A stretch of DNA of 64,000 nucleotides, taken from the IMG/VR virus record IMGVR_UViG_3300025018_000135, one strand, 5' to 3'. A program made the position numbers and the translations under genes. The stretch is from an uncultured virus (IMG/VR IMGVR_UViG_3300025018_000135). Taxonomy: Duplodnaviria; Heunggongvirae; Uroviricota; Caudoviricetes. The notes under the pieces were generated by a model. The model searched no databases and was not told where the DNA came from. It saw nothing but the letters and a program-made list of their open reading frames with translations. Of the stretch, positions 43,490 to 57,914 are shown piece after piece. How positions within the stretch are numbered: position 1 is the first letter of the stretch; the number at the start of each line of letters is the position of its first letter.

Positions 43490-44157
43490 TTTTGTTTCCT
43501 CTTTGATTTACCTAGACGCTTCTTTGATTTGCGTCGGTTATTTTTACCCTGACGGGTTTTAATTTTGGAAATACGTGAAAGTATCTGTCCCTGATAGATT
43601 TCCCTAAGTCCGGTGAGTGCCACTAAATTCGGTGGCTTTATACCAAGTGACTTTCCGTACTCCAAATAAACTCTTTGGTCGCATAATAGCGCTATTATTA
43701 AATTACTCAAAGAAAACTCAGTTTTCAAAATACCATATATTCTAGATTGGCGTAGTATTTTATCTAGTTTCTTTGATCTATTTATTGCTACTTCCAATGG
43801 CAGTGGTAATTTATTTTTTTCATACCAGTTTTTAGTAAACTCAATATATCTATCAAGTATAAAGAACCTTGTTATTTCTGACTTTCCTTTTCTAAGGACT
43901 GATTTGGTTTGTTCTTCTGTTAAGCCTTTATCAAGTGCGAGTTCTTCAACAGATTTTGACTCTCTATACAGACAGCCTTTTTCTCCGTCATGCCACATAC
44001 AAGTTTTTATTTTGCATTTCTTTAAAATCTTTTCCGACAAAGGACAAATAATAGGCTCGAAGATTACACTTATTTCTTTTTCACTTTTCTTTTTGGCAGG
44101 GCTTTTGCTTTTGGTATTCTTTTTGGTGGTCGTGTCGTTTTCTCTTCGAGCAGACAT
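43474..44157 (-). CDS. Hypothetical basic protein, possibly DNA-binding
   Basis: Cys cluster plus an HTH-like segment, SVEELALDKGLTEEQTK. Confidence 0.5.
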   Translation of the reverse strand: MSARRENDTTTKKNTKSKSPAKKKSEKEISVIFEPIICPLSEKILKKCKIKTCMWHDGEKGCLYRESKSVEELALDKGLTEEQTKSVLRKGKSEITRFFILDRYIEFTKNWYEKNKLPLPLEVAINRSKKLDKILRQSRIYGILKTEFSLSNLIIALLCDQRVYLEYGKSLGIKPPNLVALTGLREIYQGQILSRISKIKTRQGKNNRRKSKKRLGKSKRKQKCQTN

Positions 44158-44651
44158 ATCAATTTATTCCTCTCCTTTTTATTAGACAACAGAGGCAAAG
44201 CGTTTGCATGGTGGAAAGCCAACATCACTGCGTCGCATTCGTGAGGCAAAGCATGTACGGATTTATAAAAGGGGTCTAAATTCTTAGGAAGGTTTAAAAC
44301 TTTTTTAGCCGCATTTTTCCAAGTGACTGCCGTATATGGATAAATGGGTATATTAGGAAAGGCACCGAACAAATAACCAATCATTGCAGTAACTTGTTCA
44401 GCAGTAGGAGTGCGGAAGCTGCGAATTAAAAATCTTTCAATTGAAATAGCGTCTGGATTATATGTTTCTATTAGTTCTTCTATTTCGTCGCCGAAAGCGT
44501 CTAGTTGTAAGCGAGGGTCATCTTTTAAATCCACTAAAGTATTTTTAATCATTCCTAAAGCGGGAATATCGAACTTACATTTTTTATCGAAACTAACAAC
44601 AGAAAAGCCGCAATTTGCTGTGCCGGGATCAATACCTAAAATCTTTAACAT
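44070..44651 (-). CDS. ruvC: RuvC-like Holliday junction resolvase
   Basis: ILGIDPGTANCGFSV, ISIERF, HECDA; true start MLKILG at 44651. Confidence 0.88.
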   Translation of the reverse strand: MLKILGIDPGTANCGFSVVSFDKKCKFDIPALGMIKNTLVDLKDDPRLQLDAFGDEIEELIETYNPDAISIERFLIRSFRTPTAEQVTAMIGYLFGAFPNIPIYPYTAVTWKNAAKKVLNLPKNLDPFYKSVHALPHECDAVMLAFHHANALPLLSNKKERNKLICLLEEKTTRPPKRIPKAKALPKRKVKKK

Positions 44652-44702
44652 ACTGTTGCACCACGCTAATTTGATAGTAATGAAATTGGTGCAATTCTTA
44701 TG

Positions 44703-44715
44703 TACTTTACAGATT
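44703..44715 (-). promoter_or_regulatory. AATCTGTAAAGTA motif upstream of ruvC
   Basis: Exact copy of the repeated 13-mer. Confidence 0.65.
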
Positions 44716-44740
44716 TTCCAAAACACCTTCGGAGGGCTTT

Positions 44741-45952
44741 ATGCCTGTAAGAATTCCATCTAATAGAAACCTTGGGCCGCGTAACAGACGCACTGTTACA
44801 GTGGCTCAAAATGCAATTAAACGTGTCGCCCCTATGGCACAAGAACAATACGATAATGCAATTCAAGTTAACGGATATGAGTGCTTAATTTATCAAAGAC
44901 TAGAAAATGGGCGTAAGTGTTCGTGCAGCAAAGCCGCAAAAGTTTTACCAACCGTTTTAGATGAAGAAGGAAACGCAACACAGGAACATATTAATTCTCT
45001 ATTAACAGGTCAGGCTTTTGGTATTGATGAATATGGAAGTCAGCCTAACAATAAAACTACAGGTAATTCGTACACGTCACCTGCGCCTAACGAAGACGAT
45101 TTTCCTATACTAGAGGAAAAGTCCACTAATAGAAATATTACGCCAGATGATGTTAATGCAGTAGAGCTTGAACAATTTAATGATGATGATTTTATTTTAG
45201 AACAAGATGCTGCGATGGGTTCAATGGGTCGTTGTGGAGTTTGTTTTTCTTCAAGTTACGTGGGTGGATATAATTTATTTAACGGAATACGCTTGGTATA
45301 CGACACAACGTATTTTGATTCCAACCAAAAGGGTACAAGCAAAACTTATAAAGCAACTATCAATAAGTCTCAAGCTCCTAATACTTTTGAGATTAACGAT
45401 ATAGACGGATACGTGGAATTTGATATTGTTATTCCGAAAAATGTAATTGACGTTCACTTCATTAGAGTCTTTAATAATTTTGACGTTATACCTCAAGCTC
45501 TAATTCAAATTAAAAATTCCAGTATGTCGGACTTTATTGATTTAAATACTAGTAATGTATTTTCTTTTGCAACTGGATTACCTTGCAGTATTCGTATTTC
45601 TAAACTGGCTGTATTTACTCACGTAGAATTACAGTTCGCGGCTACTTATGAAGACACTAAAATAGAATATCCAAGAATTACCAAAACGGGGGATGTATCT
45701 GTAATAGAGGGAATTGATTCTGTAACACTGGTGGCTAGTCCTAAAGTTACAGATTTAAAGCCTTGGGATATTATTGCGGATGGGGTTTTCGGTAAATTAT
45801 GGCGAGTCACTAACGCTAATCTATTTAACGACAATCATTTAAATAATCACGGATGGGATATTCAAGCCCGTCTCGTGCAAAGTTACGAAGTACAATCCTA
45901 TTTGTTTGTAAAAGGTAGAAAACCTAAACAAACAACTAATTTTAATAGATAA
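44741..45952 (+). CDS. Probable virion structural/assembly protein
   Basis: First gene of the plus-strand block; CSC...CGVC...GG motif; beta-rich C-terminal half. Confidence 0.45.
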   Translation: MPVRIPSNRNLGPRNRRTVTVAQNAIKRVAPMAQEQYDNAIQVNGYECLIYQRLENGRKCSCSKAAKVLPTVLDEEGNATQEHINSLLTGQAFGIDEYGSQPNNKTTGNSYTSPAPNEDDFPILEEKSTNRNITPDDVNAVELEQFNDDDFILEQDAAMGSMGRCGVCFSSSYVGGYNLFNGIRLVYDTTYFDSNQKGTSKTYKATINKSQAPNTFEINDIDGYVEFDIVIPKNVIDVHFIRVFNNFDVIPQALIQIKNSSMSDFIDLNTSNVFSFATGLPCSIRISKLAVFTHVELQFAATYEDTKIEYPRITKTGDVSVIEGIDSVTLVASPKVTDLKPWDIIADGVFGKLWRVTNANLFNDNHLNNHGWDIQARLVQSYEVQSYLFVKGRKPKQTTNFNR

Positions 45953-45994
45953 GCGCTCTGTGCGAATAAGAAACCTAAGCTGAGAGAAACGGAT

Positions 45995-46375
45995 ATGAGT
46001 AGTGAAGTCAAAGTCAGCGTAGGGTCAGGTAATACTATCGAGAATCTGGTAAATTCTTTATTTACCGGGGGGCCATCAGATGCAGTTATTGCCGTCCTGC
46101 TACTGGTAATCATTTTGTTAGGATTGCTAAGTTGGAAACTAAATAAAAACAGTGAGGAAAATAAAAAAAGAGCAGATGAATTAATCGTAGAGTCTAATAA
46201 ACAAATGTTAGAGCTGTCTGCTAGGTACAGTGATTCTATAGAAGAGATACAAGAAAAACATAATCATGAAATAAGAATGCTAGGCACGTCACTTGAAGCA
46301 ACTAAATTAATTTTAACAGAAGTAAAAGTATTATTATCTGTTGTCGTCAAGCAACCAATGAAAAAGTCGGAGTAA
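45995..46375 (+). CDS. Single-TM coiled-coil membrane protein (holin/antiholin-like)
   Basis: TM segment AVIAVLLLVIILLGLLSW followed by a heptad-rich region. Confidence 0.55.
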   Translation: MSSEVKVSVGSGNTIENLVNSLFTGGPSDAVIAVLLLVIILLGLLSWKLNKNSEENKKRADELIVESNKQMLELSARYSDSIEEIQEKHNHEIRMLGTSLEATKLILTEVKVLLSVVVKQPMKKSE

Positions 46376-46379
46376 GAAA

Positions 46380-47267
46380 ATGAAAGGCAACGTTACTTTA
46401 CTGAAAGCGTCTGACATTTCATTACCAAAAACTAATCTTGAAGCTATGCACCAATTAAGGAAATTGTCATTTGAGTTTCACGTAGAGGCTCACGAACTCG
46501 CGGACACTCTTAGAAGGTTCCGTGAAGACTCTACTGTTCTTTCTGGTGTATTTAATATTCTCAATGACGCAATTATTAGAGTTAGTGGTGATGGTAGTAT
46601 TCTTTATATGAACCCCACCGCAGAAAAATTGTTCGGTGCTGATAGAGTTATGTGTAAAGGTAGGAGTATTTCATTTCTTGCCGGTCTGTCATTAAAAGAC
46701 TTACTGGAAGAGTTGAATACCAACGGAAAGAATCAATTGAAAATGTTCAACCTTAGCGGTAGATATTTCGACGCTTCTCTGTCGGTCACTGAAGTAGAAC
46801 ACGGTAAAGATAAAATAGAATACGTTTTCGTAATTCGTGATATGAGTGACATACTGAAAATGAAGTCTGCATTAATTGATTCTGATACTAAGTTTGAAGT
46901 ACTGTCTAAAGCTTTAGATGAAGCTACTGACGTTATTATTATTTCAGACTCAAATAATAAAATTATTTTTTGCAATAAAGCTTTTACCGAGCATACAGGG
47001 TATTCGTACAAAGAAGCTATTGGTAAAAATCCGGGATTTTATAAGTCTGGTAAAACACATGACGAAGTTTATGAAGACATGTGGCAAACTGTGCGTTCTG
47101 GAAAAGTGTGGCACGGTATGTTTATTAATACTGCGTTCGATGGAAGGTTGTTAACAGACGATACTACAATTACTCCAGTCTTACAGACAGCTTCGTCTAT
47201 GCCTACGTTCTATATCGCAGTTAAAAAAGTTATACAAAAAGGGGATTTAAATGAAAGATTTAATTGA
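46380..47267 (+). CDS. Stand-alone tandem PAS-domain protein
   Basis: PAS1: DAIIRVSGDGSILYMNPTAEKLFG...VIRD. PAS2: IIISDSNNKIIFCNKAFTEHTGYSYKEAIGKNP...MWQTVRSGKVWHG.FIN. No output domain. Confidence 0.9.
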   Translation: MKGNVTLLKASDISLPKTNLEAMHQLRKLSFEFHVEAHELADTLRRFREDSTVLSGVFNILNDAIIRVSGDGSILYMNPTAEKLFGADRVMCKGRSISFLAGLSLKDLLEELNTNGKNQLKMFNLSGRYFDASLSVTEVEHGKDKIEYVFVIRDMSDILKMKSALIDSDTKFEVLSKALDEATDVIIISDSNNKIIFCNKAFTEHTGYSYKEAIGKNPGFYKSGKTHDEVYEDMWQTVRSGKVWHGMFINTAFDGRLLTDDTTITPVLQTASSMPTFYIAVKKVIQKGDLNERFN

Positions 47268-47565
47268 TTTAATCAGCAGATTGACAAAAAGAGACATGAT
47301 TCGTGGCGGGGCTTTAATTCTAGTTCTGGCCTACATGTATTTTTCTGATGCCACTGGATTTAGTGTTGTAACTTATATGATTAGCTTAATGCTAGTCATT
47401 GCTTTGTTCTCGCATTTTATTCGCCGTATTATTTTCCCTTATCTGGATATGGGCGTAATTGCAAAAGCAGCTAAAGAAAGTCCTACAGGCGCTGCCGTTG
47501 TTTTTGCAAGCATCTGTTTTATTATCGGCTGCCTTATTATTTCAGTTGGTGGAATGTTGGGGTAA
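47251..47565 (+). CDS. Putative holin (3 predicted TM segments)
   Basis: 104-aa hydrophobic protein overlapping the PAS gene stop; upstream of the endolysin-like gene. Confidence 0.6.
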   Translation: MKDLIDLISRLTKRDMIRGGALILVLAYMYFSDATGFSVVTYMISLMLVIALFSHFIRRIIFPYLDMGVIAKAAKESPTGAAVVFASICFIIGCLIISVGGMLG

Positions 47566-47568
47566 CTT

Positions 47569-48243
47569 ATGTATAAGCTCAGAGACGATTCTGTAACTAC
47601 TAATGCAGAAGTTAGGTTTAAAAAGCCTTGGAAAAAAGACGGTGATTATTTAATACCCCAAACCAATACCAAAGAGAAATATAAAGTAGTTAAGGTTATA
47701 GAAAGCTCAGGTAAAGACACTCTGTTCGAGTGTAAATACTACAACGAACTTTGGTATATAGGACTAAGAGAAAAAATAGAAAATACCTATGATCTGATTT
47801 TCCTCTCTGAGTATCAAAAAAGAATTGCGCTACCTGCGCCTAGTCATTATTTTCAAGCTTACGTTGTAAAACGAAAAGATGAAGACAAAAGGTTCGCTCT
47901 AATTAGTTTTAAGCACATGCTGGAAAAGCATGGAATAATTGGAAGCGACACAGAGCAAACTGAATTAGGGTTTCGATATTGGAAAAAATTAATAGAAAAG
48001 TATTCGAGTCTTAATTGCTACTATTGCATAGATACTTCAAGTGACATACCAAAAGCTCTAGAGCCTAAAGTAAAAACGCTTAAAGTTAATACTTTGATTA
48101 TTCCTGTGAAAGTGTCCGGTGGTAAAATAGTAGCGAAAGACAGTAAATATAACGAGTATGTAGAAAACATGTTAGGCAATGTAGACAGTTTTTTGCTAAT
48201 ATCGAAAAACAAAATTCAGATTACTATTGATAAGGTGATTTAA
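47569..48243 (+). CDS. Hypothetical protein
   Basis: 224-aa ORF with SD.EQT..G..YW motif. Confidence 0.5.
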   Translation: MYKLRDDSVTTNAEVRFKKPWKKDGDYLIPQTNTKEKYKVVKVIESSGKDTLFECKYYNELWYIGLREKIENTYDLIFLSEYQKRIALPAPSHYFQAYVVKRKDEDKRFALISFKHMLEKHGIIGSDTEQTELGFRYWKKLIEKYSSLNCYYCIDTSSDIPKALEPKVKTLKVNTLIIPVKVSGGKIVAKDSKYNEYVENMLGNVDSFLLISKNKIQITIDKVI

Positions 48244-48714
48244 ATGTGTAAAGTAGAGAAAATTCTATCGCGTCTAGAAGAAACTGACATGGTTATTGCT
48301 ATGGCGCCAGAAGACTACAATAAAGACGCTGAAAAGGCTACTGAGTTATTCAACAAAGAAATGAAAAAGATATTCCCTAAAGCAGACTTTGCTGTTGCAA
48401 AAGTAAGACTGTTTGGTGGCGAACCTGCTGCTATTGGTTTTGGTTTTGCTTATGACAGACCTGCGATTATTCAGAACTCTAATACGTATACTCAATTTAT
48501 AATGCACCTGACAGACAAATCGGGCAAACAAAGAGATATGACTAGCTTTGAAATTGAAATGCTGCAAATGAGTTATAAGTTAGGTAAACGTGGTGCAGGT
48601 GTAACGTACAGAAAGATTAAAGGTAAAACTCCGATGGAAGCCACTAAGAAATTAATTGAGTGGTTTAAAAAGAACAAAGATGTTCTGATAGAAGTCGGCG
48701 AAGCTAACAAATAA
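48244..48714 (+). CDS. Hypothetical protein with KILSRLEE leader (putative internal head protein)
   Basis: Leader shared with neighbouring genes. Confidence 0.5.
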   Translation: MCKVEKILSRLEETDMVIAMAPEDYNKDAEKATELFNKEMKKIFPKADFAVAKVRLFGGEPAAIGFGFAYDRPAIIQNSNTYTQFIMHLTDKSGKQRDMTSFEIEMLQMSYKLGKRGAGVTYRKIKGKTPMEATKKLIEWFKKNKDVLIEVGEANK

Positions 48715-48750
48715 GCCTAATTTTAGTCATTAACCAACGGAGTAATTAAC

Positions 48751-49149
48751 ATGATCGACCCGAAGAAAATCCAAGACGAAATCCTTGCTAAAGTGCGCCC
48801 TATCTTTATGAAGCAAGGTGTTAAAATTACTAAGGGTAAAATTGACGGCCCTTATGAAACCCCGAACGGCGAAGAAACCCTTCACGACATCTGTTTTGAA
48901 ATTAAAACAGATGAAATGGGTATTTCTATTTTCCAGCATCCCTCTAAACCTAAATACAAGAATCAATTAATTAGTTTGGTAACTGGTAAAAACAAACGCA
49001 CTATTATTGCGTCTTTGCTTGGCATGTACGCTGAACCTTACGTTGAAACTGGTGCTTATGTGGCGGAAGTATTTATTGCGCCGATGAACGCTAATAAACT
49101 GGAGCTTGTTGTTGTAGTTGCAAGCGGTTCAGATAAAGCCAAGAAATAA
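48751..49149 (+). CDS. Hypothetical protein
   Basis: GGAG Shine-Dalgarno site; 132 aa. Confidence 0.55.
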   Translation: MIDPKKIQDEILAKVRPIFMKQGVKITKGKIDGPYETPNGEETLHDICFEIKTDEMGISIFQHPSKPKYKNQLISLVTGKNKRTIIASLLGMYAEPYVETGAYVAEVFIAPMNANKLELVVVVASGSDKAKK

Positions 49150-49257
49150 GAATTAGGGATGTAGCGCTTTACGTTTCTTTTACTCTGCTTAGGCATTTGT
49201 TTTAGAGTGAATGGTAGCTACATTCCTTCCTAATTAATCAAACACAGGAAAACGAAG

Positions 49258-49575
49258 ATGGATATTAAAAATAAAATTGAGTCTCGATTAAATATAGAAA
49301 CTGCCGCGTCAGATAGTCAAATAATTAAAGACTGTAGTAAGGCCATTAAAGCTAACAGTACACTTACACCTATCGAAAAGAAAAGCGAAGTTGGCGGAGG
49401 CGAGTGTTTTATTGAAATCGACTCGAATCGTGGTGGAAACTTAACTGAAAAAGACTTGGCTAGAATTAAAACGTCTTTGTCTAAGTACAAGATTTCAGGG
49501 ATTACTATTCAGTTCAATGACAGTTCTAATGACCAGATTGTATTTACCTCAGATGCTTTCGTGGGGGAAAGTTAA
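49258..49575 (+). CDS. KIESRL-leader protein
   Basis: MDIKNKIESRLNIETAA. Confidence 0.6.
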   Translation: MDIKNKIESRLNIETAASDSQIIKDCSKAIKANSTLTPIEKKSEVGGGECFIEIDSNRGGNLTEKDLARIKTSLSKYKISGITIQFNDSSNDQIVFTSDAFVGES

Positions 49576-49576
49576 A

Positions 49577-49894
49577 ATGGACATTAAAACCAAGATCGAA
49601 GCGCGTCTTGAAAACAAAGCATCTATCAAAGATGAAAATTACTACGACGGTATGTTGTCAGATGTTCACAAAGAATTGAAAAAGATTTTTGGTGCCACGA
49701 AAGTAAAAGAAGGAAAGTTTTTAGCATTTAAAGACGAAGGTCTGAAAACCTACGTTGTTACTACTGGCTTTAACGTAAAAGACTCTAATAAAGTAATGAA
49801 GCTGATTAGTAAGTATGGTATTAGGGAAGTAGAGTTTAATGCAGGTGCCAAAGGTGAAATGCACGTTGTTGTCCACTTCGACTTAAAAGACTGA
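49577..49894 (+). CDS. KIEARLE-leader protein, copy 1
   Basis: MDIKTKIEARLENKA...; ATG at 49577. Confidence 0.7.
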   Translation: MDIKTKIEARLENKASIKDENYYDGMLSDVHKELKKIFGATKVKEGKFLAFKDEGLKTYVVTTGFNVKDSNKVMKLISKYGIREVEFNAGAKGEMHVVVHFDLKD

Positions 49895-49904
49895 GGGAAA
49901 TAAA

Positions 49905-50222
49905 ATGGACATTAAAACCAAGATCGAAGCGCGTCTTGAAAACAAAGCATCTATCAAAGATGAAAATTACTACGACGGTATGTTGTCAGATGTTCACAAA
50001 GAATTGAAAAAGATTTTTGGTGCCACGAAAGTAAAAGAAGGAAAGTTTTTAGCATTTAAAGACGAAGGTCTGAAAACCTACGTTGTTACTACTGGCTTTA
50101 ACGTAAAAGACTCTAATAAAGTAATGAAGCTGATTAGTAAGTATGGTATTAGGGAAGTAGAGTTTAATGCAGGTGCCAAAGGTGAAATGCACGTTGTTGT
50201 CCACTTCGACTTAAAAGACTGA
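49905..50222 (+). CDS. KIEARLE-leader protein, copy 2
   Basis: Identical to copy 1. Confidence 0.7.
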   Translation: MDIKTKIEARLENKASIKDENYYDGMLSDVHKELKKIFGATKVKEGKFLAFKDEGLKTYVVTTGFNVKDSNKVMKLISKYGIREVEFNAGAKGEMHVVVHFDLKD

Positions 50223-50232
50223 GGGAAATAAA

Positions 50233-50541
50233 GTGAGCGTCAAAGATAGGATTGAAGCACGTCTTGAAGAAACAGCAAAGTATGATATTAGTAAAGAAAA
50301 CCTTGAGAAAATTCGTAAGATAATCGGTAAGATGGTACTTGACACTCGTTCGGTTTCTTACTCAGGTATACACAAAACAGGCGATCATTCTTTTACAGTA
50401 AAAAAGCTTTCCAACACAATGACAGACTGGGAAGCTATTAAAACGGCTGAACAAAAAATTAATCGCCTCTTGGGGGAAACAGATATTAAAGTAATATTAA
50501 GCTTAGGGGACAAACAAGTTAATATCCTAGTCGTATATTAA
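50233..50541 (+). CDS. RIEARLE-leader protein
   Basis: MSVKDRIEARLEETA. Confidence 0.6.
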   Translation: MSVKDRIEARLEETAKYDISKENLEKIRKIIGKMVLDTRSVSYSGIHKTGDHSFTVKKLSNTMTDWEAIKTAEQKINRLLGETDIKVILSLGDKQVNILVVY

Positions 50542-50554
50542 ACTAAGGTGCTTT

Positions 50555-51391
50555 ATGAAAAAACTATGTCTGGTTTTTCTGTTAATGCTGTACGGGTGCG
50601 AACGGGATGCACAAGCTCCCGCGCATACGCTCACACACGCGCACGTACCTGCGCCCGCGCACGAGGCTTTTATTCCTGAAATAAAAACGATTAAGTTTAT
50701 CTTTCAAGATGACAAAGTAACAGAAAAACCAGAGCAAGCTGAATTACCTAAGAATGCTTACACTCACATTCCTGAATTGGCTAGAGTAATTAAGGAATTA
50801 GAGTACCCTATTTATTTGCCTCAGTTTGTTGCAGGATTAATTGAGCAAGAATCTTGTATTACTTTAAGGCACAGTCGTTGTTGGAGTCCGACCGCTGAGT
50901 TAAAGACAAGTCGTGAATATGGTTTTGGTTTAGGGCAAATAACAGTTGCGTATAATACAGACGGCTCAGAACGATTTAATATATTCAAGGAACTGAAAGC
51001 GCAAAAAGGTTTTGAGGATTGGGACTGGAATGATCGTTTTAATCCCAAGTATCAGATACGTGGAATAATTGTTAAGTTGAGAAGTACAGATAGTTTTCTG
51101 AAGTTTGAAAAAGCAGATGAATACGAAGCAATTGCTTTTTTATTGTCTGCTTACAATGGCGGTGCAGGTCACGTATTAAAAGATCGCCAGATTTGTTTAC
51201 GAAAAGAAGGTTGTGACCCTAGCAGATGGTTTGGTCACGTTGAACTAGATTCAGTTAAATCAAAAACTCCGCAACCTGCTTATGGTAATCAATCTTTCTT
51301 TCAGATTAATAGAAAGTATGCGCCTAGAGTTTTAGGTGAGCGTATGCACAAATATACATGGTACATGGAAAGTTTTTTAACTGAGGAATAA
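50555..51391 (+). CDS. Lytic transglycosylase (SLT-type endolysin) with lipoprotein signal
   Basis: Lipobox LMLYG-C; catalytic IEQES, GLGQIT, LSAYNGGAG. Confidence 0.85.
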   Translation: MKKLCLVFLLMLYGCERDAQAPAHTLTHAHVPAPAHEAFIPEIKTIKFIFQDDKVTEKPEQAELPKNAYTHIPELARVIKELEYPIYLPQFVAGLIEQESCITLRHSRCWSPTAELKTSREYGFGLGQITVAYNTDGSERFNIFKELKAQKGFEDWDWNDRFNPKYQIRGIIVKLRSTDSFLKFEKADEYEAIAFLLSAYNGGAGHVLKDRQICLRKEGCDPSRWFGHVELDSVKSKTPQPAYGNQSFFQINRKYAPRVLGERMHKYTWYMESFLTEE

Positions 51392-51497
51392 ATAATCAGG
51401 CTAATTTAATATCATAAGCAGAGCACGATTAACGTGATCGTGTCGTTTGAGAAATCAAACGTATATCATGTTGTAATTACAACGAGAGGAAATAAAA

Positions 51498-51794
51498 ATG
51501 TATACTGTTAAAAACAAAACCGGCGATATGGTTTCGGTTGGTGGTCTGGTACTGGAACCGGGCCAGTCTAAAACCGTTACTGTTTTAAATGCAGAATTGC
51601 AGGCAGCAACTACACTGGTAAGTATTACTCCTAGTGCGGCATCATCTTTGACTGCTCTTACTGATAGTTCTACTGGTACTTCAGGTGGTGCTACTATTGG
51701 TGCAGTTTCTGATGTTGCAACTGCTGCAAATGCTATTGCAACTCTGGCAGCTAATCAGAGTAACATTATTAGTTTTGTTGAATCACGTCTGTAA
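51498..51794 (+). CDS. Probable head fibre/decoration protein
   Basis: Ala/Thr/Ser-rich, LTDSSTGT.G...NAIATLAA; strong Shine-Dalgarno site. Confidence 0.45.
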   Translation: MYTVKNKTGDMVSVGGLVLEPGQSKTVTVLNAELQAATTLVSITPSAASSLTALTDSSTGTSGGATIGAVSDVATAANAIATLAANQSNIISFVESRL

Positions 51795-51850
51795 AATAAT
51801 AGGGAGAGTCGAAAGGCTCTCCCGTACCTATTTAAATAAAGGAGAAAAAA

Positions 51851-52330
51851 ATGTTAACGGTAACTAATCTAACACCAAACGTTCAATTTATTGGCAACGT
51901 TGGCATTGAACCTTTTGGTACAAAAACCGCAGAATTTAATGCCGCTGCTTTGCAAAGTGCTGTTAACAGTAGACTAGTACTAGTTAAAGCAACAGCAGAA
52001 ACATATCAAAGTTTAAGAAGTAAGATTGTTGAAGATTCTAGTACATCATACACACTAAAAGCAATTCATGAAAATACTTACCGTAGATTTACATCAGGCG
52101 ATCCAATTCAAGTAACTGTTAATAATTATACAGCAGAACAATTCGTTCCTGAGTCTCAGTTTCATTTTAAGCAAGCAGGTCTTGGTAAAATTACTTATGT
52201 AGCAGGAAGCGGCGTTACTATTAATACGTCAGAAACTTTAATTAGTAGAAAACAAGGAAGTGCCCAAACGCTTATTTATTTGGGTGATAATGTTTTTGAT
52301 TTAATTGGTGACTTAGAGGCAGCGCCATGA
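51851..52330 (+). CDS. Probable virion structural protein
   Basis: Q.G.G.IT.VAGSGVTIN...LIGDL, a beta-rich C-terminal domain typical of fibre-associated proteins. Confidence 0.5.
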   Translation: MLTVTNLTPNVQFIGNVGIEPFGTKTAEFNAAALQSAVNSRLVLVKATAETYQSLRSKIVEDSSTSYTLKAIHENTYRRFTSGDPIQVTVNNYTAEQFVPESQFHFKQAGLGKITYVAGSGVTINTSETLISRKQGSAQTLIYLGDNVFDLIGDLEAAP

Positions 52331-53391
52331 GTATTTTAGGAATTATCGCGAGTAGTTCTTCAAAAGCCGCGCCAATACCTGTGCCTGTGTGCAATGTAAT
52401 ATTAAACGGGGACGCCGCTGCGGGTGTTCCGGGAGTCTTAGTTCCAGACATAGATGGACAAAGTTTTAGTATTACAGACGCAGCACAAGGACTATATATT
52501 GCAGGAACGCCTCTTGCAGAATTACGCGCCATGCCAGCTTCTGGTAAAAGAGTGTGGATTGAAGGAAAAAATTTCTTAACGTCTAATCCGGGTTCTGGTT
52601 TAAACGTAAGAATAGGTTTTTCTGTTGTGTCGAATCTTGGTCAGTCATTAGGACTTGTACAGATCATAGGTGGAGGGGCTGAAGGAGAAAATGGTGTTGG
52701 TTCTATTCGCGTGGAGTCCATTACGGGTGCTTATACTTCTGTTAATGCAGTTTTACCGCAAGTTCAGAGTTCTTACAGTTTAGCTTTAGATTCTGAAGGT
52801 GAAATTTATTTTTACGACAGAGTTGCCGGCGAAGTCGTTGCAGCTTCTACTTTAAATCCGGGATTTAGTGGAATAGTTGCAGGTGCTACATTCCTTGTTG
52901 GAATTGGAATGATTGATGGGAGCGGAACGGCAGGGCCATTAACAGCTTCAGGAGATTTTGTAACGAGTCAGAATCTTATGACAGATAGATTAGCACTAGG
53001 AAAAGATGAAGACTGGTGCGGTAATTTAATTGTTGGTGCAACACCTTCTATGGTTGCTGGATATTTTAGTCTTGTAGTTGGTGAAAATCTTGCTGAAGCT
53101 TGGGGCTATCTAGTTTCTCAAGGAATAGGAAGTATAAGTGGTATTCCATTAGAAGGGTCTGTAATGCGCGGCCTTTATGTAGAAGCCTTTAATGGAAGCA
53201 TCACTCGCAGACTAGCAGAATTCTCTGGTGACGTTACAGCTATATTGGCAGGAAAGAGTTTTTATTTAAACGATACTGAGTATGCGTTAGGTGCAGTAAC
53301 TTATTATGCGGGGACAGACTACACTGAAGTTTTGCTCCCAACCATTCCAACCTTTATAGATGGTGTAACTTATACGGTGGACTTTATATGA
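52327..53391 (+). CDS. Probable virion fibre/receptor-binding protein
   Basis: Gly-rich, beta-rich, low in Lys; begins MSILGIIASS; overlaps the upstream stop. Confidence 0.45.
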   Translation: MSILGIIASSSSKAAPIPVPVCNVILNGDAAAGVPGVLVPDIDGQSFSITDAAQGLYIAGTPLAELRAMPASGKRVWIEGKNFLTSNPGSGLNVRIGFSVVSNLGQSLGLVQIIGGGAEGENGVGSIRVESITGAYTSVNAVLPQVQSSYSLALDSEGEIYFYDRVAGEVVAASTLNPGFSGIVAGATFLVGIGMIDGSGTAGPLTASGDFVTSQNLMTDRLALGKDEDWCGNLIVGATPSMVAGYFSLVVGENLAEAWGYLVSQGIGSISGIPLEGSVMRGLYVEAFNGSITRRLAEFSGDVTAILAGKSFYLNDTEYALGAVTYYAGTDYTEVLLPTIPTFIDGVTYTVDFI

Positions 53392-53858
53392 CTATAAAAA
53401 TTTTAGCCAACGAAGAAAAGCCCAGCAACATTATTGAAATAAAAACCAAAGGTTACGACGGCGGTAAAGACCTTTATAGGCTGTTTAAGTCACTAACTAA
53501 AAATACTTTCGTTATTGTTGATAAAGATGATTGGGACTGTTCAAAAGCATTTTTCTTCAATACACCTAAATTAAAATCTAGTTTAGAAGAATTTAAGATA
53601 GATAATCGTATAGTATTGGTAAATACAATTGAAACTACAGGAAATTTAATTCCAATTATCGAAATGACCTTGTATATTGAAAGTATAGGTGGTGTAGGTC
53701 ACAGTTTTGGAATTGAAACGTCTCACGGAGAAAAATTCGGTTGGGATGGTGACGGGGCTGACAGAGTTGTCGAAATAAAGTTAAACGGCAAAGTAATAAA
53801 TAACAGGTTAGAAGGTAAAAAACTTAGAGATCGAATATCTGAACTAAGGATAAGGTGA
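53388..53858 (+). CDS. Hypothetical protein
   Basis: G.GHSFGI...FGWDGDGAD motif. Confidence 0.5.
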   Translation: MTIKILANEEKPSNIIEIKTKGYDGGKDLYRLFKSLTKNTFVIVDKDDWDCSKAFFFNTPKLKSSLEEFKIDNRIVLVNTIETTGNLIPIIEMTLYIESIGGVGHSFGIETSHGEKFGWDGDGADRVVEIKLNGKVINNRLEGKKLRDRISELRIR

Positions 53859-53862
53859 TAAC

Positions 53863-54240
53863 ATGAAAGTATTAGCTGGAAAACGACCTGACGGTTTCCC
53901 TTCAAATTTATCAATAATGCCCAGAACACAATTATCTAGGGATATAAAAAGACTAATGGAATTAGACTTTAGTAAGAAAGCGCTTTTATGGGACGAAGGT
54001 GAACTTTACGACGGGTCAGAGTCATACAAGATAAGTCTATTCATACCAGTTATTCGTTTCTCGCCGACTAGAATGAATAAATTTGCCAACGGCATTAAAC
54101 AGTTGGCAGCTAAGAACGGCGCAAATATTAGCGTTGATAAAAATATAGCAGTAGAAATAAGACTCCCTGAAAAGCTAAAATCAAAAAAAGGAATTATGGT
54201 TTATATTACAGTTTTTAATTTTTCAGGAGACAAACAATGA
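53863..54240 (+). CDS. Hypothetical protein
   Basis: 125-aa ORF in the operon. Confidence 0.5.
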   Translation: MKVLAGKRPDGFPSNLSIMPRTQLSRDIKRLMELDFSKKALLWDEGELYDGSESYKISLFIPVIRFSPTRMNKFANGIKQLAAKNGANISVDKNIAVEIRLPEKLKSKKGIMVYITVFNFSGDKQ

Positions 54241-54413
54241 CCACGGAAAAAGAAACTAAAAAATTAGAACTGTGGCAAAAGTATGCGTTAGCTTTAGCTG
54301 GCGTACTAACGGCTCTGGGTTTGGTTATTGCAGCGGCTACAGGAACACTGGACAAGTTTAAAGATATGATGGATGTTCTTTCAACAGAACAAGTAGAGGA
54401 AGAAAAACAATGA
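54237..54413 (+). CDS. Small single-TM membrane protein (58 aa)
   Basis: Below the track cut-off. MTTEKETKKLELWQKYALALAGVLTALGLVIAAATG...; AGGAG Shine-Dalgarno site; ATGA overlaps at both ends. Confidence 0.7.
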   Translation: MTTEKETKKLELWQKYALALAGVLTALGLVIAAATGTLDKFKDMMDVLSTEQVEEEKQ

Positions 54414-55999
54414 AAGCACTTAATGTAGAAGTAGCATTTCAGGTTCCTGAGTGGTTTAAAGAAATGACACCGGAAATGCAAAAAGATTACTTGAAAAAAC
54501 ATCCTAATTCTAAATTGGCTAAACGCTTTGGAAAGAAACTTGAAACGGAAGTAAAAGAGAATCCATTTAAGGTTGAAGAAAATCCCAAAGCAAAAAAGAA
54601 AAAAGTAGAGAAAGAGAAACCTAATACTGTCCCTACTGGAAAAGACGCTGTAGATATTTTAGAGAAAGAAGGTTCACCTACGAACTTCAAGGGCCCGAAG
54701 ACTTCTAAGGATTCTTTGAGCGATAACCCGGTTAAAGAAAGGCAGATCGTTACTTTCTTAAAAAGGTTGGCTGACCTTTCGACGGACGCGAAAAAGAAAG
54801 GAAAAGCTGCTCCTAATTATGATTTATGCCAAGTGTCTATTCCGGGCACAAATCTTTTCTGTCGTGGAAATAAAGGAATTGAAAGACAAGACATGCCTCA
54901 GTTAAAAGGCAAGCCTGTTCCCGGTTCATGGGGAGACAAGAATCTTGAAAAAGACTCTAAAGGCGAAGTGGATGGAGAGGCATCTTTCAAAAAGATGTTG
55001 AAAGAAGAAGGTGTGCAGCTTAAAAATAAAAGAGTTGATGCTGCTAAATTAAGAGCAACACAAAAAGAATTAGTAGGTTCAAAAGTTGCAGGCATGTTAG
55101 AGGCTTTGAAAAAAGACCCTAAGAATGCAGGCATCACTGCGCCTATTTTCGTTTCAAAAGATGGTTATGTTTTAGACGGTCATCATAGATGGGCTGCAAT
55201 GGTAGGTTTGTCTATGGCCGATGGTCTGCCTAATCCTGTTAAAATGGATATTATTGAAGTTGATTTAGATATCAAAGCCCTTGTGAAAATGACTAATGAT
55301 TTTGCAGAAGAAATCGGCATTGCACAAAAGAAAGCACAAGCACGTTTACTTGCGGAAGCTAAGTTAGTTGTATTAGGTAGCTGCGGTTGCGGTTGTACTG
55401 AATTAAAAAAGAAAATTGAAGCTCGTTTGGAAACAGCAGGTGACGAAGACTTAGACGCACCTTCAATTACCAATGTGCAAAAGGATAGTATTGGTAATGA
55501 CGAACATACTCAATTTTATAAAGCTAAAGAGATTTTCAAAATCTTTTCAGATTACAAACTAAACAACTTTGAAATTGTATACGCCAACAACCAAAAAGAA
55601 GACTTTAATGTAAACAGCAGAGGTTTCACTGATCGCATTACTAATATTGAAAAATATCTTGTAGGGAAATCTAAGCGTGACATAAAAGTTGAAGACTTTA
55701 TTAAGCTTGCTTATGAGGAAGACTTAGAGCATGAAATTCGCAAGCTTGGATTTACGCCAGAGTCTTTTGGTAAGGCCGAAAAGTTTATCGACCCTGAAAA
55801 TATTAAAGCCACTCGTTGTATTGAAACTGGCTTTTACTATGACAAAGATAAAAACTACGGTTGTGTGTCTGTTGTAGCTTACAACGAAGAGAATGTAAGA
55901 CTTGAGGTTTATTTCTCTATTAAGTCTTCTGTTAAAAAGCTTGGTGGGTATTTAATGAAAGTGTGTTTCGCACTGGACTATTGTGAACAATATCTATAA
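54410..55999 (+). CDS. Multidomain protein with ParB/sulfiredoxin-like domain
   Basis: LRATQKEL...APIFVSKDGYVLDGHHRWAA; internal KKIEARLETA. Confidence 0.75.
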   Translation: MKALNVEVAFQVPEWFKEMTPEMQKDYLKKHPNSKLAKRFGKKLETEVKENPFKVEENPKAKKKKVEKEKPNTVPTGKDAVDILEKEGSPTNFKGPKTSKDSLSDNPVKERQIVTFLKRLADLSTDAKKKGKAAPNYDLCQVSIPGTNLFCRGNKGIERQDMPQLKGKPVPGSWGDKNLEKDSKGEVDGEASFKKMLKEEGVQLKNKRVDAAKLRATQKELVGSKVAGMLEALKKDPKNAGITAPIFVSKDGYVLDGHHRWAAMVGLSMADGLPNPVKMDIIEVDLDIKALVKMTNDFAEEIGIAQKKAQARLLAEAKLVVLGSCGCGCTELKKKIEARLETAGDEDLDAPSITNVQKDSIGNDEHTQFYKAKEIFKIFSDYKLNNFEIVYANNQKEDFNVNSRGFTDRITNIEKYLVGKSKRDIKVEDFIKLAYEEDLEHEIRKLGFTPESFGKAEKFIDPENIKATRCIETGFYYDKDKNYGCVSVVAYNEENVRLEVYFSIKSSVKKLGGYLMKVCFALDYCEQYL

Positions 56000-56009
56000 G
56001 GAGAATTAA

Positions 56010-57110
56010 ATGAAAGCGCTTGTCTCAAAACAAAAAGCAGATTACAGAAGTCAAAACGAACTATATCTATTCACAATAAACGATGCAGATACTTACAAAG
56101 CAATAGAACCTATTCTAAAAAAGATGGGTAAAGAATGTAATAAGTTGATTGCAGCTAATAAGTCTGTAGATAAAATGAACTTGACTCCTTACACTCAGGA
56201 ACTTATTAAGCACGTAGAACGTGCAGTACAAACATATCCTAAAGGTATGGACGTTGCTTTTTCTAAACTAGATATTCGACAAGTTGCAAAAGACATCGCA
56301 CGATATTATGCAAATGAGTTGTTTTATGTAATTCAATCGGAAAACGCCAGTGTTGAGGAAGCGAAAGCGCCTGAGTGGTTTGATAAAATGTCTAAAAAGA
56401 GTCAGGAAGATTATCTGAAAAAGAATCCTGACTCTGATTTAAAACGTTTTAAAAAGACTACGGACGCACCCAAAAAAGAAAAGAAGAAAAGCTTCAAACT
56501 AATCAACAAAGACATTCCTGCTATAGTTGCTTTAGCTGTAAAAATGTTGAAAGAAAAAGGCATGGATGCAGTTGAAGAAGACAAGATGACAGGATTGGTT
56601 CCAAGAATAATGGCGAAATTTACTCAGGACAAGCTGAAAGGTGATAGTTCTTTTTGGGACGATAACGATAAAGAAAGCGCTATGGAGAGAGTGGCTGGCA
56701 TTATCGTTAAAGAAGTCATGAAGTCTAAAGAAGAAAGTAATTTTTCTAACGTATCTCCGGTTGTTGTTTCAGGTCGAGACTTTAAAAGAGAGTTTCAGGC
56801 TCTAAGAGTTTTCTTCGGAAACATTCGAGTATTACGTCACCCTGTTTTAACTAATACGATGGTAATGTACTCCGGGAGAATCGGAACTCTTACTAGACCA
56901 ATGTTATTTAGAATTGAATCTGAGTTGAAGAAAATTGATGAAAACTGGCGCATGACTAATATTTGGAAAAATGATCCTATCTACACTGCGAATCCAGATA
57001 AGAGTCCTGACTATACTGGCTGTCAGTTTATGCTTAGGCGTGACAAAGAGAAAACAAAAATTATCAACATTGATATTCCGGGCATGTCTTTAATTACTAA
57101 GTTGGAGTAA
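56010..57110 (+). CDS. Multidomain hypothetical protein (probable virion internal protein)
   Basis: Contains the PEWFDKMSKKSQEDYLKKNPDS module. Confidence 0.55.
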   Translation: MKALVSKQKADYRSQNELYLFTINDADTYKAIEPILKKMGKECNKLIAANKSVDKMNLTPYTQELIKHVERAVQTYPKGMDVAFSKLDIRQVAKDIARYYANELFYVIQSENASVEEAKAPEWFDKMSKKSQEDYLKKNPDSDLKRFKKTTDAPKKEKKKSFKLINKDIPAIVALAVKMLKEKGMDAVEEDKMTGLVPRIMAKFTQDKLKGDSSFWDDNDKESAMERVAGIIVKEVMKSKEESNFSNVSPVVVSGRDFKREFQALRVFFGNIRVLRHPVLTNTMVMYSGRIGTLTRPMLFRIESELKKIDENWRMTNIWKNDPIYTANPDKSPDYTGCQFMLRRDKEKTKIINIDIPGMSLITKLE

Positions 57111-57113
57111 CAC

Positions 57114-57443
57114 ATGATAAGGAAAAAGATTGAAGCCAGATTAGAATCGTTTTCTGAAGTAAAGGACAAACTACAGAAGTGTAAGCTACCTGAAGAATAT
57201 AAGCAATACGCTTTAGAAAACATGACAAACTCTACAAGCTACAAAAAGAAGTTTGCTTTTAGTTTAAAACTACATCCTGACTTGACCAAAAAGATTAAAG
57301 AAAAAGGACTACGCAGTGGATTTGATATGGGGGTTTGCCCTGATGGATATTTTATCCATACTCACAGAGCAAGGAGTAAGGCGTATCCAACTCCTTCAGG
57401 GATAACCATAAAAGATATTAAGTTTATTAATTCAACAGGGTAA
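57114..57443 (+). CDS. KIEARLE-leader protein
   Basis: MIRKKIEARLES. Confidence 0.6.
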   Translation: MIRKKIEARLESFSEVKDKLQKCKLPEEYKQYALENMTNSTSYKKKFAFSLKLHPDLTKKIKEKGLRSGFDMGVCPDGYFIHTHRARSKAYPTPSGITIKDIKFINSTG

Positions 57444-57446
57444 CTT

Positions 57447-57562
57447 ATGAAAAAATTAGAAAGAAAATAGAAGCTAGACTAGAAAATATAATTCCTAAGA
57501 GTGAAGTAACAGTAAAGCAACATAGTGTTCCAGCAGGATCAAAAAGAAAAGAAAAGAAATAG
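57447..57562 (+). pseudogene. Frameshifted remnant of a KIEARLE-leader gene
   Basis: ATG-A6 leads to an early stop; one extra base gives MKKIRKKIEARLENIIPK... ending at TAG 57562. Confidence 0.55.
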
Positions 57563-57564
57563 TT

Positions 57565-57598
57565 AAAGGCCGCATTGTTAATTCAGTGCGGCTTTTTT
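57565..57598 (+). terminator. Intrinsic terminator ending the plus-strand block
   Basis: GCCGCATTG...CAGTGCGGC-T6. Confidence 0.85.
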
Positions 57599-57879
57599 AT
57601 TGCCTGAATTTCAGGCCCTTGGCAGGCGTGGCCAGAGGCCCGGACACGCCAGAATTGGTCAAAAAATGACCAATTCTAGAAGGCCCCGTAAGCCTCTAGG
57701 AGGCGGTTTAGGGTATGGGGAGCTAGTAGGGTACAGGGTAGGCACCAATCAGGCCCATTCTGGGCCGTCTGGTGTCTTGGCGGGGTGTCTGGGGAAGGGG
57801 TTTCTAGGTCACGTAGTTTGGGGAGGTGTCTTGTAGCAGAGGCACAAAACACCACGAGGCGGGGGCAAACGCTAGGCAC

Positions 57880-57904
57880 AAAAAAGGCGGGAATTTCCCG
57901 CCTT
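57880..57904 (-). terminator. Intrinsic terminator after tmk
   Basis: GGCGGGA-ATT-TCCCGCC with T6 on the minus strand. Confidence 0.85.
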
Positions 57905-57914
57905 GGTTTTTGCG

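Follow-up and report, generated by a model that had tools for sequence, protein, structure and literature searches.

Directly upstream of the holin gene of an uncultured jumbo phage lie two genes that may tie the moment of lysis to the state of the infected cell, namely a gene for a small membrane protein with a predicted coiled-coil part, here proposed as an anchor or partner, and a gene for a soluble tandem-PAS protein lacking an output domain, the second PAS of which resembles the flavin-type PAS domains of NifL and MmoS. The favoured reading, to which a probability of about 0.4 is assigned, is that this accessory module preceding the holin acts as a signal-dependent antiholin or co-holin. 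The stretch of DNA analysed as a whole (64,000 nucleotides; hereafter the window) is part of the 134-kb genome of this phage, which is a distant relative of the phiRSL1/BCSR5 group, and the runs holding it are labelled as aquifer or groundwater metagenomes. Four further runs contain short contigs that match the region, the pieces listed differing by no more than one letter; no RNA run is listed for this DNA. Contig X3 (46339-46528) spans the junction of gene 45995 and the PAS gene. The features of interest are as follows.

45995..46375, + strand: single-pass membrane protein, 126 aa (ORF, hydropathy)
46380..47267, + strand: soluble tandem-PAS protein without output domain, 295 aa (Pfam, PDB sequence search, AF2, Foldseek)
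46380-46544, + strand: N-terminal helix of the PAS protein, aa 1-55
46545-46835, + strand: PAS1, aa 56-152
46836-46937, + strand: inter-PAS linker helix, aa 153-186
46938-47231, + strand: PAS2 (NifL/MmoS type, as supported by sequence matches), aa 187-284
47251..47565, + strand: holin of the phrog_8226-type family, 104 aa (phrog_8226, family profile, AF2)
47569..50541, + strand: eight small soluble ORFs between holin and endolysin (ORF list)
50555..51391, + strand: endolysin of the lytic-transglycosylase-like phrog_669 family, 278 aa (phrog_669, lipobox pattern scan)

The first three genes are tightly packed inside a run of plus-strand genes beginning at 44741. As the preliminary description had noticed and as the ORF list bears out, the TM/coiled-coil gene is followed after a gap of 4 bases by the PAS gene, the stop of which is overlapped by 17 bases by the 3-TM holin gene, with a ribosome-binding-like site (AAAGGGGA) located 5' of the holin ATG. 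The PAS gene does stand between two membrane genes, as had been claimed, since by the hydropathy scan the 126-aa protein has one TM segment and the 104-aa protein three hydrophobic stretches. The possibility that 45995 and 46380 form one frameshifted gene was considered and rejected, as the frames differ and the PAS orthologue P0002 starts at the same Met. The promoter/terminator scan remained at chance level (22 versus 23.8 expected, and 6 versus 5.0 expected), and the operon limits are therefore not defined by it.

Judged by its sequence, the 104-aa gene is a true member of the phrog_8226-type holin family. The phrog_8226 model, annotated as "holin", matches both this protein (E 6.5e-5) and its orthologue P0009 (E 3.9e-5) over nearly their full length, as well as 43 of the 60 aligned family members (best E 2.2e-13); the Pfam family Holin_2-3 stays below threshold for the 104-aa protein (18.3 bits vs 27). 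The AF2 model built from this 60-sequence alignment (pLDDT 87.3) comprises helices at residues 2-32, 38-61, 67-76 and 78-103, in an architecture where an N-terminal amphipathic helix runs into TM1 and is followed by TM2, a basic loop and TM3, the loop between TM2 and TM3 (SHxxRRxLFPYxDLxxxAxKA) being the most conserved part of the holin. A profile of the family, for which 219 representatives were collected at E<=1e-3, matches the gene that immediately precedes the endolysin, both in phiR1-37 (E 2.7e-19), on which the phrog_8226 model itself has no match, and in YuA, FP1, ST4 and Mecenats66 (4/4; E 2.7e-19 to 6.6e-6 with phiR1-37 included). The profile finds no member in BCSR5 and phiRSL1; besides, tblastn with P0020 and g290 against cultured phages yielded nothing new, the close-holin alignment A5 retrieved no relatives from IMG/VR or JGI metagenomes, and no experimental paper on this holin family was found in the literature search. 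In five of five cultured phages and 19 of 19 IMG/VR loci, the family lies directly upstream of a homologue of the window endolysin, and such a holin together with a transglycosylase-like exported endolysin is a widespread two-gene lysis module. The lysis-region setting suggested earlier for the 104-aa gene thus holds, its family being paired with this endolysin family in 24 phages, where the two genes are adjacent; in the window, the holin and the homologous endolysin are about 3 kb apart on the same strand.

Regarding this endolysin, the 278-aa protein is matched by phrog_669 "endolysin" (E 8e-22) and itself matches 79 phage records, those listed being mostly annotated as endolysin or lysin, with 46-51% identity to the YuA and Bordetella-phage types and 42% to g289 of phiR1-37. 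An SLT endolysin had been announced some 3 kb downstream; the endolysin nature and the strand are as stated, but no Pfam SLT match appears even at E<=1, and the similarity to the MltF transglycosylase domain is weak (E 0.09). Its N-terminus carries a lipoprotein-type signal (…LLMLYG-C), the only credible lipobox in the window according to the pattern scan. The intervening block of eight small ORFs includes four paralogues of roughly 105 aa and an exact tandem duplication (49573-50228, 328-base period), and these ORFs show neither TM segments in the hydropathy scan nor any Pfam family above cut-off.

The protein encoded by gene 46380 is matched in Pfam by PF00989 in two stretches (83.7 bits vs a cut-off of 22.6, E 1.2e-23) and by PF13426 (66.6 bits vs a cut-off of 27), and neither a kinase, a GGDEF nor an HTH domain was found in its 295 aa by the same search, nor a membrane segment by the hydropathy scan. 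Its AF2 model (pLDDT 61.5 overall, about 70-85 in the PAS cores) displays two alpha/beta modules, for which Foldseek retrieves the tandem PAS of DosP, PpsR and MmoS (E 5e-16 to 2e-13) and the PAS of NifL (TM 0.88, rmsd 1.6). An N-terminal helix plus two PAS domains without output domain, the architecture initially read from the sequence, is thereby confirmed by Pfam, the AF2 model and Foldseek. This stand-alone architecture is kept in P0002, the sole orthologue among 5.8 billion clusters, which is 52% identical across 94% of the length, the linker helix being identical at 31 of 34 positions and the PAS cores at 46-52%. The nearest bacterial proteins have PAS domains only 32-37% identical, from which it follows that the PAS gene was not acquired recently from a host sensor. 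The contig of P0002 is 2.2 kb long, and "2 contigs, longest 2240" is the record given for P0002 as well as for the holin orthologue P0011; this shared record hints, short of proof, that PAS and holin genes are neighbours in a second phage. Scans of IMG/VR with the PAS protein, the 403-aa protein and the alignments A1 and A3 gave no close relatives for synteny, and scanning GTDB genomes with A1 gave none either. In JGI metagenomes, A1 retrieved 26 weak PAS1 matches, and tblastn of all window proteins against these loci found no second shared gene, save an AAA protein in L006; the latter is a high-GC contig with a long ORF that reads as a multidomain PAS-GGDEF-EAL sensor, and is probably bacterial.

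The assignment of PAS2 to the NifL/MmoS FAD type is supported by the PDB sequence search, where the two best of 56 solved sequences are MmoS (3ewk, E 3.4e-20) and NifL (2gj3, E 1.9e-13), and by W235, which aligns with the F-alpha Trp of NifL and MmoS and which, like N250, is also kept in P0002. The preliminary description had placed PAS2 in a NifL/Aer/MmoS type; at the sequence level this stands for NifL and MmoS and less so for Aer (8DIK), which matched less strongly (E 1.7e-4). To the flavin-pocket residues T103, H132, N164 and R195 of MmoS (PMC9668731), S189, P218, N250 and K282 respectively correspond by hand mapping, giving one identical (N250), two conservative (S189, K282) and one changed (P218) residue. 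The Cys of the motif GRNCRFLQ in 9vf7 aligns with Pro218, leaving the adduct Cys without counterpart. LOV domains are defined by an adduct-forming Cys in the GxNCRFLQ motif and, because Pro218 stands at the Cys position, a LOV photocycle is not expected in PAS2. The same site lies beside the flavin N5 and is occupied by H132 in MmoS and by E70 in NifL, NifL also differing from MmoS there. PAS2 is thus a candidate flavin-binding domain, with the Pro at this site as a point against it.

The 126-aa product of gene 45995 begins with a short acidic tail, has a single membrane segment (about residues 21-52 in the hydropathy scan, the helix itself being placed at about residues 28-47) and ends in an 80-residue charged part, helical or coiled-coil. 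A cluster of Lys and Arg follows the membrane helix, which by the positive-inside rule suggests that the coiled coil and the C-terminus are cytoplasmic. No homologue but itself occurs among 5.8 billion clusters, and Pfam and PHROG searches returned no significant family match. What sheds light on this protein is rather that such gene pairs recur. In IMG/VR, a motif scan delivered 32 stretches, 13 of which encode a PAS relative; six of the latter, 135-282 aa long, are small NifL-type PAS proteins that stand alone, and they fall into four phage lineages (L082=L064, L088=L059, L068 and L058). In each of the four, the PAS gene abuts or overlaps a gene for a helical (coiled-coil) protein of 135-172 aa with one C-terminal membrane helix, the membrane helix of the 126-aa protein being N-terminal; no sequence similarity is detectable among the coiled-coil membrane proteins of different lineages. 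Both of these differences speak against the favoured reading. The pair adjoins, and comes after, an Amidase_3 endolysin in L082 (Pfam E 2.8e-20) and a Phage_lysozyme endolysin in L058 (E 3.3e-35), and no recognisable lysis gene is present within 3.5 kb in L088/L059 and L068. Counting the window, a holin or an endolysin is directly beside the PAS pair in three of five lineages. Membrane proteins of phrog_781 also occur near the PAS pairs in L082, L088 and L068, and have no relative in the window.

Because a like pair recurs in these four lineages, genes 45995 and 46380 are read as a two-gene membrane-tethered sensor module at the holin, and gene 45995 is proposed, by analogy, to encode the protein that anchors the PAS protein to the membrane or partners it there; the label "antiholin" it had received at first is without direct support, and the recurring pairs favour the role of anchor or partner instead. 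The scheme that we infer, from the bound flavin and the topology of the anchor to all the protein contacts and any effect on lysis timing, would run as follows. The accessory module sits directly before the holin of the two-gene lysis module; the PAS protein would dock on the coiled coil of the anchor, on the cytoplasmic side of the membrane, where it would use its flavin to read redox or respiration in the infected cell, and would then alter the association of the membrane helix of the anchor with the holin, or with itself. The triggering of the holin would in turn be delayed or advanced, the module behaving as a signal-dependent antiholin or co-holin. Generalised further, this would amount to a new class of phage lysis regulator, in which a membrane-tethered flavin-type PAS encoded by two genes, in the window and in the four IMG/VR lineages, gates the holin by contact according to host redox state or respiration; this broader claim is put forward tentatively, being somewhat more doubtful than the reading of the window itself.

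The main rival to a sensor module is that the PAS gene, alone or together with gene 45995, would be an unrelated insertion, a "moron" in the late operon that came to lie by the holin and has a target other than lysis. It could, for example, dampen host signalling by pairing with PAS domains in sensor kinases or cyclic-di-GMP enzymes of the host, or tune phage gene expression. Stand-alone tandem-PAS proteins of 190-370 aa are indeed common in bacteria and archaea, as seen from the Atlas look-alike clusters, and the window carries several host-interference genes (Tad3, Acb1, an antirestriction protein and a SAM lyase). In addition, tblastn found the PAS gene in none of the 19 IMG/VR loci with this holin-endolysin module, and none is present in the annotation of the five cultured phages with the module; phage-wide, tblastn with the PAS protein returned only 4 unrelated Listeria-phage fragments. 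Being absent from all 24 other phages with the holin module and having one orthologue, the PAS module must be regarded as optional and rare, and because eight unrelated small ORFs have been inserted right after the holin, between it and the endolysin, the adjacency of PAS and holin genes may be an accident of an insertion hot spot. The two lineages whose PAS pair has no lysis gene nearby fit the same picture. What speaks against it is that the PAS gene is paired with a gene for a membrane-anchored coiled-coil protein in five of five lineages, which points to an action at the membrane, that three of these five pairs are directly beside a holin or endolysin, and that the distance to the nearest bacterial proteins argues against a recently captured host sensor. 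An insertion unrelated to lysis is considered somewhat less likely than the sensor module, and is its strongest competitor.

Other explanations concern primarily the nature of gene 45995. In YuA and FP1, an Rz-like spanin gene is annotated immediately before the holin gene, which the endolysin gene follows, so that gene 45995 could be a spanin, more precisely the inner-membrane subunit, the PAS gene being a separate insertion that would act, if on lysis at all, on the cytoplasmic loop of the holin; the conserved basic loop between TM2 and TM3 would offer a possible docking site. An N-terminal membrane helix followed by a coiled coil is also the layout of a spanin i-subunit, and PHROG gives Rz-like spanin matches, albeit insignificant ones (phrog_1152, E 0.014; another, E 0.21). 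Yet, lipobox scans covering ORFs of at least 25 aa in 44000-58000 and of at least 35 aa in the whole window disclosed no small lipoprotein ORF embedded in, overlapping or near gene 45995 that could be the o-spanin partner, and the 126-aa protein has no sequence similarity to YuA gp60 (E 1.3). The charge distribution would moreover favour a cytoplasmic coiled coil, and the partners in the four lineages are tail-anchored, with a helical part that lacks a signal peptide and is most likely cytoplasmic, all of which makes a spanin improbable. Still less probable is that the 126-aa protein is a second holin or a novel single-TM antiholin regulated by the PAS protein, with the 104-aa protein serving the exported endolysin as a pinholin-like trigger. 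The place directly beside the endolysin, where a holin is usually found, is taken in L082 and L058 by the anchored coiled-coil protein and by no other membrane protein; the Atlas feature search gives the 126-aa protein a weak Holin_BhlA-type lead (score 0.89, under the 0.9 bar), and the window endolysin brings an export signal of its own. Known exported endolysins are accompanied by small depolarising holins. Against this reading, the 126-aa protein has no significant family match, and the proposal largely overlaps the favoured explanation, the one difference being the membrane protein held responsible for the lesion.

Should the PAS protein and its anchor indeed time the holin, the moment of burst would depend on host physiology instead of a fixed clock or superinfection, and phages would be able to gauge the energy or redox state of the host before committing to lysis, which would be especially relevant in redox-stratified habitats, e.g. 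aquifers. Lysis timing decides burst size and phage fitness. To our knowledge, no studied phage times lysis by host redox state, and the lysis-timing regulators we know of are membrane antiholins or proteins of the T4 RI/RIII type answering superinfection; no description of PAS domains in connection with holins, lysis timing or jumbo phages appeared in the literature searched. The three-gene system offers a simple and testable way to ask how cytoplasmic signals reach a holin.

Among known systems, lysis inhibition in T4, with the holin T and the antiholins RI (periplasmic) and RIII (cytoplasmic), is a functional parallel in that accessory proteins encoded with the lysis genes time holin triggering upon a signal. 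An ICP1 case (PMC7182436) belongs with it, and RIII is an example of a cytoplasmic protein able to act on a holin (PMC8385771). In contrast with the candidate of the window, a flavin-type tandem-PAS protein with a separate anchor that is known from sequence, T4 RI and RIII answer superinfection and contain no sensor domain from a general signalling family. The closest relatives of PAS2 are those of NifL (2GJ3), MmoS (3EWK) and Aer (8DIK), with the F-alpha Trp and the flavin-pocket Asn kept and a tandem PAS in MmoS as well; however, these are cellular proteins with kinase-like, kinase or chemoreceptor outputs, whereas the phage PAS protein has no output domain and has a Pro at the site of MmoS H132. 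As regards the lysis cassettes of YuA, FP1, ST4, Mecenats66 and phiR1-37, they share the same holin and endolysin families (endolysin 42-51% identical) and, in YuA and FP1, a single-TM coiled-coil gene immediately before the holin, but holin and endolysin genes are adjacent and without PAS in these five phages; in the window, the holin is flanked upstream by the PAS gene and downstream by about 3 kb of small ORFs, and the endolysin bears a lipoprotein-type signal.

Short stand-alone PAS/LOV proteins, such as the Pseudomonas "sensory box" proteins (7R5N, 7A6P, 5LUV), are likewise output-less and signal via the helices flanking the PAS core; Pseudomonas short LOV proteins figure among the solved matches (E 1.6e-7 to 6e-4). 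Short LOV proteins are single-PAS light sensors with an adduct-forming Cys. Finally, in the Cid/Lrg holin-like proteins, under LytSR and CidR control, a holin-like action is tied to the energy or redox state of the cell. LytS senses membrane potential. A link of Cid/Lrg to oxidative stress is made in PMC6997555. There, however, control is transcriptional, via a two-component system encoded in a cellular genome, whereas what is proposed here is control by protein contact within the lysis region of a phage.

The window is phage DNA, with phage-type genes (RNR, SbcCD-like, clamp-loader, UvsX, SSB, sigma-factor, RuvC, primase and topoisomerase II) and an even GC content of 0.34-0.39; its source contig is 134,286 bases long according to the protein index record, and no nucleotide match to a cultured phage was found. 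Besides, it carries a set of counter-defence genes, recognised with Pfam:

29628-30287, - strand: Tad3 Thoeris inhibitor (E 2.1e-22)
61411-61965, - strand: Acb1 anti-CBASS (E 1.6e-14)
16895-17365, - strand: antirestriction protein (E 2.4e-11)
12842-13645, - strand: SAM lyase (E 2.6e-16)

The genes between 44741 and 57836 are encoded on the + strand; the first four are:

44741-45952, + strand: 403-aa protein, phrog_21298, first gene of the block (homology)
45995-46375, + strand: 126-aa protein, one membrane helix, then a charged helical tail (ORF call)
46380-47267, + strand: PAS protein, 295 aa, 4-base gap behind the 126-aa gene (ORF call)
47251-47565, + strand: 104-aa protein, start overlapping the PAS stop by 17 bases (ORF call)

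The ORF coordinates, the gap and the overlap all agree with the three-gene layout of the preliminary description. The region is also matched by low-coverage contigs of four further runs (label: aquifer metagenome), whose listed pieces differ from it by no more than one letter; one contig spans the junction of the 126-aa and PAS genes, so that faulty assembly of a single sample does not explain the arrangement. Regarding the 403-aa protein, homologues (22-31% identity) occur in 69 phage records, nearly all from jumbo phages, e.g. BCSR5, BcepSauron, Motura and phiRSL1; the protein, which by our own reading bears CxC…CxxC motifs, is conserved in phages of the phiRSL1, BCSR5, BcepSauron and Motura type.

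In the PAS protein, Pfam recognises two PAS stretches and nothing further, in agreement with the earlier claim of a PAS-PAS protein devoid of output domain. Its AF2 model (7 sequences; mean pLDDT 61.5) opens with a long N-terminal helix, followed by PAS1 and, across a helical linker, by PAS2, with PAS cores at about 70-85 and low confidence in the N-terminal 60 residues and the linker; Foldseek matches include the tandem-PAS proteins DosP, PpsR and MmoS, as well as the NifL PAS domain (TM 0.88, rmsd 1.6). The top solved sequence matches of PAS2 are MmoS PAS-A (E 3.4e-20) and NifL (E 1.9e-13), the match to Aer being weaker (E 1.7e-4). W235 aligns with the F-alpha Trp of NifL/MmoS, and the four flavin-pocket residues of MmoS named in PMC9668731 (T103, H132, N164 and R195), placed by hand on PAS2 from the solved-structure sequence alignment, correspond to S189, P218, N250 and K282, respectively. 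Since P218 also occupies the LOV cysteine position, a light cycle is not expected. The best matches and W235 support, at the level of sequence, the putative FAD-type PAS2 put forward earlier; no cofactor signature was recognisable in PAS1.

The PAS protein is rare. Across 5.8 billion protein clusters, a single full-length orthologue was retrieved (P0002, 52% identity), with identical architecture and start, the remaining matches covering PAS2 only at 32-37% identity; in cultured phages, PAS-like sequences were limited to 4 of 50,697 records, all unannotated Listeria-phage fragments. Identity to P0002 amounts to 31/34 in the linker, 45/97 in PAS1, 51/98 in PAS2 and 20/55 in the N-terminus. No other part of the protein is as constrained as the inter-PAS linker (46836-46937, aa 153-186; low model confidence), which may be a helix for contact or signalling. 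Both P0002 and P0011, a holin orthologue (57-58% identical), are recorded on "2 contigs, longest 2240", which hints at a conserved PAS-holin linkage.

The 104-aa protein, confidently modelled by AF2 (pLDDT 87.3), is identified as a holin from its family and from that family's gene context. Alone, it matches phrog_8226 "holin" weakly (E 6.5e-5; E 3.9e-5 for the orthologue P0009), while an exhaustive profile search yielded a family of 219 representatives (E<=1e-3; 90-140 aa long with few exceptions) that share the motif SHxxRRxLFPYxDLxxxAxKAxExPxGAA between TM2 and TM3; phrog_8226 is matched by 43 of 60 aligned members (best E 2.2e-13). The decisive evidence is gene context, namely adjacency to the endolysin in relatives. 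In phiR1-37, g290 is matched by the family profile (E 2.7e-19) and directly followed by the endolysin g289, 42% identical to the window endolysin (50555-51391), for which 79 phage records contain a homologue, most of the listed ones annotated endolysin or lysin. The annotated "holin" directly 5' of this endolysin is a profile match in YuA, FP1, ST4 and Mecenats66 (4/4), and an endolysin homologue starts within about 230 bases 3' of the holin in all 19 IMG/VR loci retrieved with the holin sub-alignment. This adjacency defines a conserved module of holin and exported transglycosylase-like endolysin, and the presumed lysis region is thereby supported, the two families being paired in 24 other phages. 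The window departs from this module in that eight small soluble ORFs separate holin and endolysin.

Within that gap, 49258-50541 holds four paralogous genes of ~105 aa (MDIK.KIE.RL…), two of which (49573-49872 and 49901-50200, 100% identical) are exact tandem copies with a period of 328 bases. The window endolysin bears a lipoprotein-type signal (…LLMLYGC, Glu at +2), and several homologues 3' of the holin in IMG/VR loci have a TM segment or a signal-like hydrophobic stretch at their start. In 5 of the 19 loci, a single uninterrupted ORF (314-338 aa) contains both the holin-family and the endolysin match, perhaps encoding an endolysin that is fused to the holin or anchored in the membrane; with its 336 aa and a holin match at 17-119, the family representative P0029 is consistent with this form.

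Loci with holin-family and endolysin matches in a single ORF
L044: 3929-4936
L047: 3803-4819
L048: 3869-4813
L049: 285-1280
L050: 3923-4885

A motif scan of IMG/VR for NifL-type PAS gave 32 stretches, 13 of them encoding a PAS relative by tblastn. Sorted by ORF calls, six encode long sensors with several domains (308-1526 aa) and are probably of cellular origin, L072 has no ORF call, and six are small stand-alone PAS proteins from four lineages: L082=L064 (282 aa), L088=L059 (135 aa), L068 (137 aa) and L058 (270 aa). In 4/4 lineages the PAS gene abuts or overlaps the gene of a 135-172-aa helical protein with a single C-terminal membrane helix, located upstream in L082, L088 and L068 and downstream in L058. 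The L082 pair lies directly behind an Amidase_3 endolysin (Pfam E 2.8e-20; phrog_435 E 3e-24) and the L058 pair directly behind a Phage_lysozyme endolysin (Pfam E 3.3e-35; phrog_7 E 2.9e-50); no lysis gene was found within 3.5 kb in L088/L059 and L068. The anchored proteins share no sequence similarity between lineages. As their helical parts lack a signal peptide, these are most likely cytoplasmic, which would place them, the PAS protein and, we infer, the window coiled coil on the same side of the membrane. About one in five ORFs in these loci has a membrane segment (our rough estimate, not a test), so that an abutting same-strand membrane neighbour in 5/5 lineages, the window included, is unlikely to be due to chance. 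Of note, a phrog_781 membrane protein with a CxxC motif occurs within 3 kb of the pair in three lineages (L082 505-807; L088 5933-6301, also with a weak sub-threshold DUF1360 match; L068 6027-6473), with no relative found in the window; directly upstream of the L082 amidase endolysin lies a 476-aa trypsin-like protein (877-2307) that also contains an intein splicing domain (E 9.8e-11 to Pfam Intein_splicing).

With a probability of roughly 0.42, genes 45995 and 46380 would form a two-gene membrane-tethered redox or respiratory sensor at the holin, acting on holin triggering. The coiled coil of the 126-aa protein would serve as the membrane tether of the PAS protein, a flavin in PAS2 would sense the redox or respiratory state, and the signal would pass through the anchor's membrane helix to holin triggering; beyond a two-gene module beside the holin, we infer all of these steps. 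A PAS gene was found at the holin-endolysin module in 0/24 other phages (5 cultured, 19 IMG/VR loci). The main rival, in which the PAS gene is accessory, unrelated to lysis and located in an insertion-rich spot, is somewhat less probable, the recurring pairs speaking against it.

The 126-aa protein had no homologue in the protein clusters and no significant family match in Pfam or PHROG. Reading it as a spanin, the PAS gene being an independent insertion, is reasonable because YuA and FP1 have an "Rz-like spanin" at the same place upstream of the holin, but lipobox scans of the window found no lipoprotein partner ORF within or near gene 45995, Lys/Arg directly behind the membrane helix favour a cytoplasmic coiled coil, and the PAS and anchored-helix gene pair recurs in other phage lineages, which together make this reading improbable. 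That the 126-aa protein would itself be a regulated holin or antiholin is more doubtful still.

In the literature searched for PAS domains together with phage holins (judged by title or abstract), lysis timing or jumbo phages, no description of a system like the sensor pair favoured here was found, and the whole words "PAS" and "holin" are both absent from a jumbo-phage genomics survey (PMC7824862). Among known systems, T4 lysis inhibition comes closest in function; there, the holin T is the target of antiholin RI and of RIII, a cytoplasmic protein. The ICP1 system resembles it. NifL, MmoS and Aer are the nearest relatives of the sensor, and the closest lysis cassette is of the YuA/phiR1-37 type; none of these systems joins a cofactor-type sensor domain to lysis genes. 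The PAS module is proposed as an accessory lysis regulator; if the function holds, there is a fair chance that it represents the first member of a new class.
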